From Raillietiella orientalis (Eukaryota), in the NCBI GenBank assembly GCA_036172245.1, contig JAYWIR010000041.1, positions 186,001 to 250,000 of the forward strand: a stretch of 64,000 nucleotides of DNA. Reading direction: 5' to 3'. The stretch's first letter is position 1. Every line of letters begins with the position of its first letter. Shown in pieces: positions 46,351 through 47,160 of this stretch. The position numbers and the translations under genes were made by a program. Below the pieces are notes generated by a model that saw only the letters and a program-made list of their open reading frames with translations, made no database searches and was not told the origin of the DNA.

Positions 46351-47160
46351 AAAAGACGATGTGCAGTGGACTGACCCGAGTGAGGAGCACCATCCGGGTG
46401 GCCAGGATGGTGCTGGAGCACACCGAGCACTCTCTGCTAGTCGGGGAGAAGGCGGGGCGGTTCGCCGCGCGGATAGGCATCTCTGAGGAGAAATCTCTGT
46501 AACGATACACGATGTAAAGAACATCTCATCTCGTCGAACGATTCCCTCCAGGAGTGGGAGGACTGGAAGGGACGCGGCTGCCAGCCCAATTTCTGGAAGG
46601 AAGTGACGCCCGATCCTCACACCCACTGCGGACCCTACAGCTCGCGCTTCAGCTACGTCCCGCTGGGAGGGGAGATCCAGGACACCATCGGCATGATCGC
46701 CATCGACGCGGGGGACCGAATCGCTGTGGGCACGTCCACCAACGGGGCAAGATTCAAGATCCCCGGGAGGGTCGGCTACTCCCCCATCCCCGGATCGGGG
46801 GCATACATGGACCAGGACGTCGGAGTGGCCGCTGCTATGGGGGACGGGGACGTCCTCATGCACTTCGTTCCCAGCTACGTCGCTGTGAAGGAGATGCGGC
46901 TCGGCACTAAGGCCTCCGAGGCTGCCCGCAGAGCCCTCGCGCGCATCTCCAAGGTCTACCCGTCCGTCCGCGGTGACCTGGTGGCTTCGGACTCCCAACG
47001 GCGGCTAGGCGCCGCCTGCATCGGCTTTGACCACATCGAGTTCTGCTCCTGGGGAGCCGGCCGCGACGCCGTCAGCGTGACCCGCATGCCCTGCGTCCCT
47101 CCCTCCAGCCCCTGAATAAACGAGGACTTCCCCGATAGAAAAAAAAAAAGACGATGTGCA
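46351..47160 (+). repeat. 15-bp target-site duplication AAAAGACGATGTGCA flanking the AGA retrocopy
   Basis: Identical copies at 46351-46365 and 47146-47160. Confidence 0.95.
46366..47149 (+). pseudogene. AGA: Processed, 5'-truncated aspartylglucosaminidase (glycosylasparaginase) retrocopy
   Basis: The intronless read is GLTRVRSTIRVARMVLEHTEHSLLVGE...CQPNFWKEVTPDP...DTIGMIAID...GTSTNGARFKIPGRVGYSPIPGSGAY... to a TGA at 47115. AATAAA lies at 47115-47120 and A11 at 47139-47149. A ~30-bp frameshifting insert sits near 46495-46525. Confidence 0.93.

Follow-up and report, generated by a model that had tools for sequence, protein, structure and literature searches.

A 5'-truncated AGA retrocopy nested in a decayed, Wolbachia-derived tuf fragment, probably placed there by target-primed reverse transcription

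Processed pseudogenes that LINE-1-type elements produce in trans lack introns, carry a 3' poly(A) tract and have target-site duplications on either side; in mammals they are textbook material (PMC4151081). Nuclear transfers of Wolbachia DNA are known in arthropods and nematodes (for example, PMC3998919 and PMC2882956). In Drosophila ananassae, host retrotransposons are inserted in integrated Wolbachia DNA, according to PMC4558871, which credits Dunning Hotopp et al. 2007 with the earlier observation of such insertions. The locus described here lies in a window of 64 kb (the whole stretch of DNA that was analysed), in which a copy of an animal gene with the anatomy of a processed pseudogene splits the remnant of a bacterial gene. 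Feature coordinates are collected in Table 1.

Table 1. Features of the AGA insert, of its target and of the surrounding sequence in the 64-kb window.
Feature	Position	Strand	Description	Evidence
Tctex-1 (dynein light chain), two exons	41285-41640	-	profile 1-50 and 45-95	Pfam PF03645
Short repeats, Wolbachia-like	within 43179-44332		82-87% identity to multi-copy Wolbachia sequence	
IS110-like element	43316-44082		67% identity to Wolbachia	
Membrane-protein fragment, Wolbachia-like	44086-44332		74% identity	
tuf (EF-Tu) pseudogene, 5' part	46035-46365	+	~EF-Tu residues 127-255; two in-frame stops, 59-nt deletion	NCBIfam, blastn, tblastn, global alignment
Target-site duplication, left copy (AAAAGACGATGTGCA)	46351-46365	.	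Wolbachia tuf nt 743-757	repeat listing, alignment
AGA retrocopy body, 5'-truncated	46366-47138	+	residues ~104 to C terminus, stop, 23-nt 3' UTR	Pfam PF01112, tblastn (8 of 8), composition
Frame-breaking extra stretch	46491-46521	+	25, 28 or 31 nt, limits ambiguous; two stops	tblastn, local repeats
Stop TGA and polyadenylation signal AATAAA	47113-47120	+		sequence reading
Poly(A) remnant, 7 A	47139-47145	+	continuous with 4 A of right repeat copy	
Target-site duplication, right copy	47146-47160	.	identical to left copy	
tuf pseudogene, 3' part	47161-47411	+	~EF-Tu residues 256-335; frameshifts, stops, small indels	NCBIfam, blastn, tblastn
Transposase (471 aa), 3' half	47532-48148	+	also in phage WO record	
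Pyruvate phosphate dikinase (ppdK) fragment	49742-50260	-	69-73% identity to Wolbachia	
Oxidored-like exon	within 57924-60517	+		
NUBPL/ParA-like, three pieces	within 57924-60517	-	best 129 bits	
CtaG/COX11-like, two pieces	within 57924-60517	-		

The insert is bounded by a 15-bp direct repeat, AAAAGACGATGTGCA, the two copies of which (46351-46365 and 47146-47160) are identical at 15 of 15 positions. The 780-bp block between the repeats (46366-47145) has a GC content of 0.64, against 0.35 and 0.36 in the 1-kb flanks, and the repeat pair coincides with the edges of this sharp GC step. The whole 64-kb window was screened for exact direct repeats 15 bp or longer whose copies are separated by 100-3000 bp; of the seven found, six consist of low-complexity poly-T or TCC sequence, and the remaining one is the AAAAGACGATGTGCA pair. 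Because it is the only non-low-complexity repeat of this kind in the window, a chance origin is not a serious explanation. At the 3' end of the insert, the stop codon TGA (47113-47115) overlaps the polyadenylation signal AATAAA (47115-47120), which is followed by an 18-nt spacer and a run of 11 A (47139-47149). Seven of these lie outside the repeat and four are the opening A's of its right copy; the poly(A) remnant that belongs to the insert is accordingly short (7 A). An earlier note on this DNA had described a perfect 15-bp target-site duplication that starts with AAAA, together with an AATAAA signal and a poly(A) tail, and both descriptions are borne out, with the tail a short one. The hexamer ACTGAC occurs twice at this locus, at 46370-46375 (4 nt into the insert, where it encodes conserved AGA residues) and at 47160-47165 (the last base of the repeat and the next five target nucleotides); this recurrence is taken as chance or junction microhomology.

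The insert corresponds to the C-terminal ~70% of animal N4-(beta-N-acetylglucosaminyl)-L-asparaginase (AGA; Pfam Asparaginase_2, PF01112). Positions 46368-46496 match Asparaginase_2 profile positions 94-131 of 309 (E 4.9e-8), and positions 46540-47112 match profile positions 143-287 (E 3.4e-33). The first ~93 profile positions are missing, and the copy is therefore 5'-truncated. tblastn was carried out by using eight animal AGA proteins, all of which gave the same two collinear matches in different frames, 46365-46493 and then 46516-47103. The matches begin at residue 102-139 of homologues that are 340-396 aa long, and the copy is without approximately the first 30% of the coding sequence; the truncation reported in the earlier note was thus recovered by both methods. 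Some 246 AGA codons are collinear with no intron-sized gap against any of the eight homologues, the sole interruption being 25-31 extra nt. A second AGA-like segment was not found in the window by tblastn.

Relatives of the insert were sought in large protein collections. A search of 5.8 billion proteins for longer proteins gave 350 matches at E<=1e-10 among 2265 candidates, and the best 120 of the 350 are 44-56% identical to the insert. Among the matches listed, the proteins named by their source are animal AGA or asparaginase, mostly from arthropods, and the rest are unnamed animal proteins. The search for proteins of near length gave 174 matches at E<=1e-20 among 531 candidates (best identity 54%), and when 1.84 billion representatives were searched in full with HMMER, 3211 matches were obtained at E<=0.001. 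In the HMMER pass and the two other large searches, no protein exceeded ~58% identity to the copy across a long stretch; the HMMER pass also gave two short proteins with 65-68% identity over 69 residues. A scan of metagenomes with the AGA piece yielded 179 pattern stretches, none of which was confirmed. By these comparisons the insert is assigned to animal AGA, with neither its parent nor a close orthologue apparent in the protein collections searched.

The copy is decayed. Although the two tblastn matches overlap by ~3 residues on the query proteins, they differ in frame and are separated by 25 nt, which places 25, 28 or 31 extra nt around 46491-46521. This stretch shifts the frame, carries two stops and contains short local repeats (ATCTCTG twice and ACGAT twice). 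It is shorter than the single host intron seen (44 nt) and holds no GT..AG pair that restores the frame, and it probably arose as a later indel or template slip rather than as an intron. A retained intron was considered separately for the low-GC dip at 46486-46545 and was ruled out: positions 46516-46557 align to conserved AGA residues, and there is no frame-restoring GT..AG. For a measure of conservation, the copy was aligned with 117 of the best 120 proteins (those of 330-420 aa were kept). It departs from the majority residue at 11 of the 70 columns that are at least 95% conserved, whereas the number of deviations at the same columns averages 0.84 in the 117 homologues themselves and never exceeds 7. 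Two of the changed columns are 100% conserved in the 117 homologues (D to Y and T to M). An open frame of 212 codons survives (46477-47115).

Set against a working AGA, which is an Ntn-hydrolase, the copy is missing the N-terminal ~30%, has a frame break with two stops and is altered at those 11 of 70 near-invariant columns; it is a non-functional pseudogene. The retrocopy anatomy given in the earlier note (truncated, polyadenylated, flanked by a target-site duplication) is retained, with the qualification that the 25-31 extra nt and the two stops leave no clean open frame. As a rough estimate, the decay of the copy would amount to ~7% neutral nucleotide change, at which an intact pair of 15-mers might be expected in about 1 in 8 cases. 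The perfect repeat is therefore no proof of a recent event. That the insertion is younger than the transfer of the bacterial DNA follows from the nesting alone; the unmutated duplication, which had been offered as a sign of youth, is a weak one, because the copy itself is decayed (11 of 70 positions).

The flanks of the insert were identified by profile and nucleotide searches. The NCBIfam EF-Tu profile matched the left flank at 46035-46265 in one frame through two stops (profile 132-208, E 8e-8) and the right flank at profile 262-342, spread over three frames. Five Wolbachia genomes, which were found via a phage WO capsid-region protein, were searched with positions 39000-49500 of the window. 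By blastn, the window matches all five, and the tuf pieces match both tuf copies of each. Identity to Wolbachia tuf is 68-71% at 46036-46320, 90% at 46326-46365 and 77-79% at 47217-47334; with the reference tuf gene (a 390-codon gene from one Wolbachia genome), the first of these pieces is 70.8% and the last 79% identical, and positions 47359-47411 are matched additionally at 75% identity. tblastn with Wolbachia EF-Tu placed residues 127-255 at 46035-46373 (E 5e-23) and, in the right flank, residues 248-313 at 47145-47324, followed by residues 273-302 and 315-335. Residues 248-255 of EF-Tu are shared by the left-flank and right-flank matches and correspond to the target codons that were duplicated.

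Nucleotides 718-757 of Wolbachia tuf correspond to 46326-46365 at 90% identity and end precisely at the end of the left repeat. In a global alignment that omitted the insert and one of the repeat copies, the left flank runs to tuf nt 757 and the right flank continues from nt 758 (base 47161); the repeat is tuf nt 743-757 with one difference. A 6-nt gap follows the junction at nt 758, after which homology is again recognisable. Removal of the insert plus one copy of the duplication, which the earlier note had proposed as a check, therefore leaves flanks that form one continuous bacterial gene (tuf nt 757 to 758).

When the left flank was compared with 151 genomes from across the Alphaproteobacteria, two matched: Wolbachia strongly, and one other over 27 nt. 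The tuf remnant lacks tuf nt 654-712 (59 nt), contains stops and uses three frames. An N-terminal part of tuf upstream of 46035 was looked for and is unsupported (best local matches E 0.3-1.6), the first 126 codons being undetectable. The aligned tuf blocks are 71-90% identical to Wolbachia tuf. Because the tuf genes of the Wolbachia strains compared are 82-100% identical among themselves, part of this divergence probably represents decay after transfer. The stops, the use of three frames, the 59-nt deletion and the undetectable first 126 codons of the relic are incompatible with a gene of a living symbiont. As judged from sequence comparison, the target of the insertion is a Wolbachia-derived tuf gene and not the cifB-like gene named previously: both flanks (46035-46365 and 47146-47411) are assigned to tuf by NCBIfam, by blastn in five of five genomes and by tblastn (E 5e-23). 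The annotation is corrected to the effect that the disrupted gene is a housekeeping gene, tuf, rather than a cytoplasmic-incompatibility factor; no inference on the transfer of cif genes is therefore to be drawn from this site.

Searches for cif-like sequence agree with this correction in their scope. No match to Peptidase_C48 or to any other cif-like family was obtained in any ORF of the window scanned against Pfam. A Peptidase_C48 search of the five Wolbachia genomes gave three frames of 4362-4659 aa and one membrane protein of 385 aa, with no recognisable CifB among them; the ORFs around the 385-aa membrane protein match the window only via the transposase at 47532-48148. Within the relic, the searches gave no assignment for 42.0-43.2 kb and 44.3-46.0 kb. 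The tuf relic was also read through with X at the stops. A pattern scan of genome contigs with this sequence gave 600 stretches (none confirmed), and a search of 5.8 billion proteins gave 129 candidates (none at E<=0.001). Decay of the relic has gone too far for such searches; comparing it with the Wolbachia genomes themselves, by blastn and tblastn, succeeded.

Other Wolbachia-like pieces lie around the tuf relic, and they are not in bacterial gene order. On the same assembled sequence, the relic is linked to intron-bearing eukaryotic genes on both sides (41.29-41.64 kb and 57.9-60.5 kb). The Tctex-1 gene lies ~1.7 kb from the first Wolbachia-like piece; its exons are AT-rich (GC3 0.24-0.36), and its intron is 44 nt long with GT..AG borders (41431-41474). 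Tctex-1 (41285-41640) was considered as a second retrocopy and ruled out by this intron. Inside the NUBPL/ParA-like and CtaG/COX11-like exons, short nucleotide matches to Wolbachia (72-84%) were observed, which are taken as conserved cores of genes with alphaproteobacterial ancestry. Shortly downstream from the transposase fragment, at 48839-49042, a degenerate, GC-rich unit of ~33 nt occurs in four copies (61-100% identity to the reference copy).

Possible traces of retro-elements elsewhere in the window were recorded as well. At 44585-45102, ~490 bp lie between the copies of a direct repeat that is imperfect (AATCATTTATT exact; 84% over 19 nt) and end in an A11 run, which is also an arm of a perfect 20-nt hairpin (45035-45054 and 45064-45083); this may represent another small retro-insert or else a palindrome of the bacterial terminator type. 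A minus-strand match to zf-RVT at 38474-39148 falls below threshold (21.5-22 bits against a cut-off of 27.5) and may be the remnant of a non-LTR element. Apart from this sub-threshold match, no LINE was identified in the window by Pfam scans of ORFs. In positions 1-39000, Pfam at E<=1e-4 gave no family in 150 of the 156 ORFs of at least 90 aa (those 150 lie within 1-36178), and of the remaining six, five were scanned whole and one in part. The absence of any Pfam match in the 150 frames of 1-36178 was noted despite GC-rich stretches (0.53-0.59) and open frames of up to 301 aa in that region.

Target-primed reverse transcription of a host AGA mRNA into Wolbachia DNA that was already nuclear is the best explanation of the locus, and we regard it as highly likely. 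It fits because the insert is truncated at its 5' end within the coding sequence, ends in its own signal and tail and is flanked by a 15-bp duplication that opens with four A's. At the presumed nick, the bottom strand (TCTTTT/GTGT) has a T-run that might have served for priming on poly(A). How the insert is built, what insert and flanks are and that the flanks join up in the empty site are direct observations. The sequence of events would have begun with a tuf-bearing Wolbachia fragment that entered the nuclear DNA of an animal (most likely an arthropod) and decayed there. A polyadenylated, presumably spliced host AGA mRNA would later have been reverse-transcribed at a nick by enzymes that were probably supplied by a non-LTR retrotransposon of the poly(A) type. 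The bottom strand would have been nicked beside the T-run (5'-TCTTTT/GTGT), and the T-run would have primed on the poly(A) tail. Reverse transcription would then have halted ~310-350 nt short of the start codon, which would account for the 5' truncation, and a staggered cut of the top strand 15 bp downstream, presumably in this order, would have produced the 15-bp duplication. The tuf relic would thereby have been split by a processed pseudogene without function. The nick TTTT/G only approximates the L1-type consensus, which may not be the preference of the host LINE. To our knowledge, eukaryotic retrotransposition with target duplication cannot take place inside a bacterium. Since target-primed reverse transcription needs nuclear machinery, the tuf fragment would already have been chromosomal when it was hit; the earlier note's statement that the bacterial DNA was nuclear at the time of insertion thus holds, as it follows from the nesting of an insert of this type in the tuf relic.

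The anatomy alone would also be expected of a LINE-mediated event that involved no processed mRNA, that is, an orphan 3' transduction or an unspliced read-through copy of a single large terminal AGA exon that terminated where the gene itself is polyadenylated; the repeat, the A-run and the 5' truncation would all look the same. We consider such an origin unlikely, as the start of the insert falls within coding sequence, LINE sequence is not joined to it, and its end is a standard arrangement of signal and tail. An unspliced copy is further opposed by the 246 collinear codons, which are free of introns in a genome whose Tctex-1 gene has one.

A different question is from where the AGA mRNA came. 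GC3 is 0.84-0.85 in the AGA copy, against 0.24-0.39 in all seven host-like exon segments measured (41288-41640; 57924-60517). The copy is so far from the host-like exons of the window in this respect that it must derive from a gene whose compositional surroundings are very different, or from another genome. The window has GC-rich stretches elsewhere (0.53-0.59 at 9-17 kb and 32-36 kb), and a compositionally mixed genome is therefore the simple answer to the contrast. The GC3 contrast and the lack of a close AGA relative in three very large protein searches are the grounds for a second answer, namely that the mRNA was supplied by a different eukaryote that lived in close association with the host, such as a parasite, a parasitoid or its host; we hold this to be very unlikely. 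If it were true, a horizontally acquired retrocopy would have been caught by host LINE machinery inside an earlier bacterial transfer, and two cross-kingdom transfers would be nested at one site.

Capture of host DNA or of free cDNA at a double-strand break in the relic, with the repeat arising by chance or by repair synthesis, is highly improbable. The 25-31 extra nt with their short local repeats do resemble templated repair filler; however, end-joining does not create a 15-bp target duplication, the repeat is the single non-low-complexity direct repeat of that length in 64 kb, and it opens with the A-run expected of poly(A) priming. That the segment is a working 3' exon of a host AGA gene with its upstream exons elsewhere is barely credible in spite of the surviving 212-codon open frame (46477-47115), as the window holds no other AGA-like segment, homology sets in right at the repeat, the reading frame is interrupted at 46491-46521 and the copy departs from residues that are invariant among the 117 homologues (D to Y and T to M). 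An assembly artefact, in which reads of host and Wolbachia were joined into a chimera, is likewise barely credible, as it would neither duplicate 15 bp of tuf at both junctions nor keep the tuf halves collinear and in the same orientation, and the tuf sequence is heavily decayed, unlike the gene of a living symbiont.

With target-primed reverse transcription as the preferred reading, the nested insertion provides a compact argument, independent of the assembly, that the Wolbachia fragment is chromosomal and not symbiont contamination, because eukaryotic retrotransposition that duplicates its target cannot occur in a bacterium. It also sets the order of events, with the transfer first and the retrocopy later. 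The presence or absence of the insert at this site could serve as a marker by which the transfer might be dated across related species. The locus further indicates that some LINE of the poly(A) type in the host is able to mobilise cellular mRNAs.

Events of this type are already well known, and the present case is a tidy and useful marker rather than a surprise. A limited literature search gave, among the matches listed, no retrocopy of a cellular mRNA inside a Wolbachia transfer, and we do not claim the combination as unreported. The insert resembles L1 processed pseudogenes in its 5' truncation, the mRNA's own polyadenylation signal, the A-tail, the 15-bp duplication that opens with A's and the dead frame. 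It differs from those of mammals in that the host is apparently an arthropod or other invertebrate, the tail has only 7-11 A and intron loss is only presumed. As in other nuclear Wolbachia transfers, degraded genes and insertion sequences of Wolbachia are interspersed with genes of the host; nothing in these surroundings is unusual, and the pieces are out of Wolbachia gene order. The closest parallel is Drosophila ananassae: there, as here, host retro-element activity struck nuclear Wolbachia DNA after its transfer, and the nesting is evidence of nuclear residence. The Drosophila ananassae insertions are LTR retrotransposons in a recent, large and little-decayed integration, whereas the present one is a copy of a cellular mRNA in a small, heavily decayed fragment of tuf.
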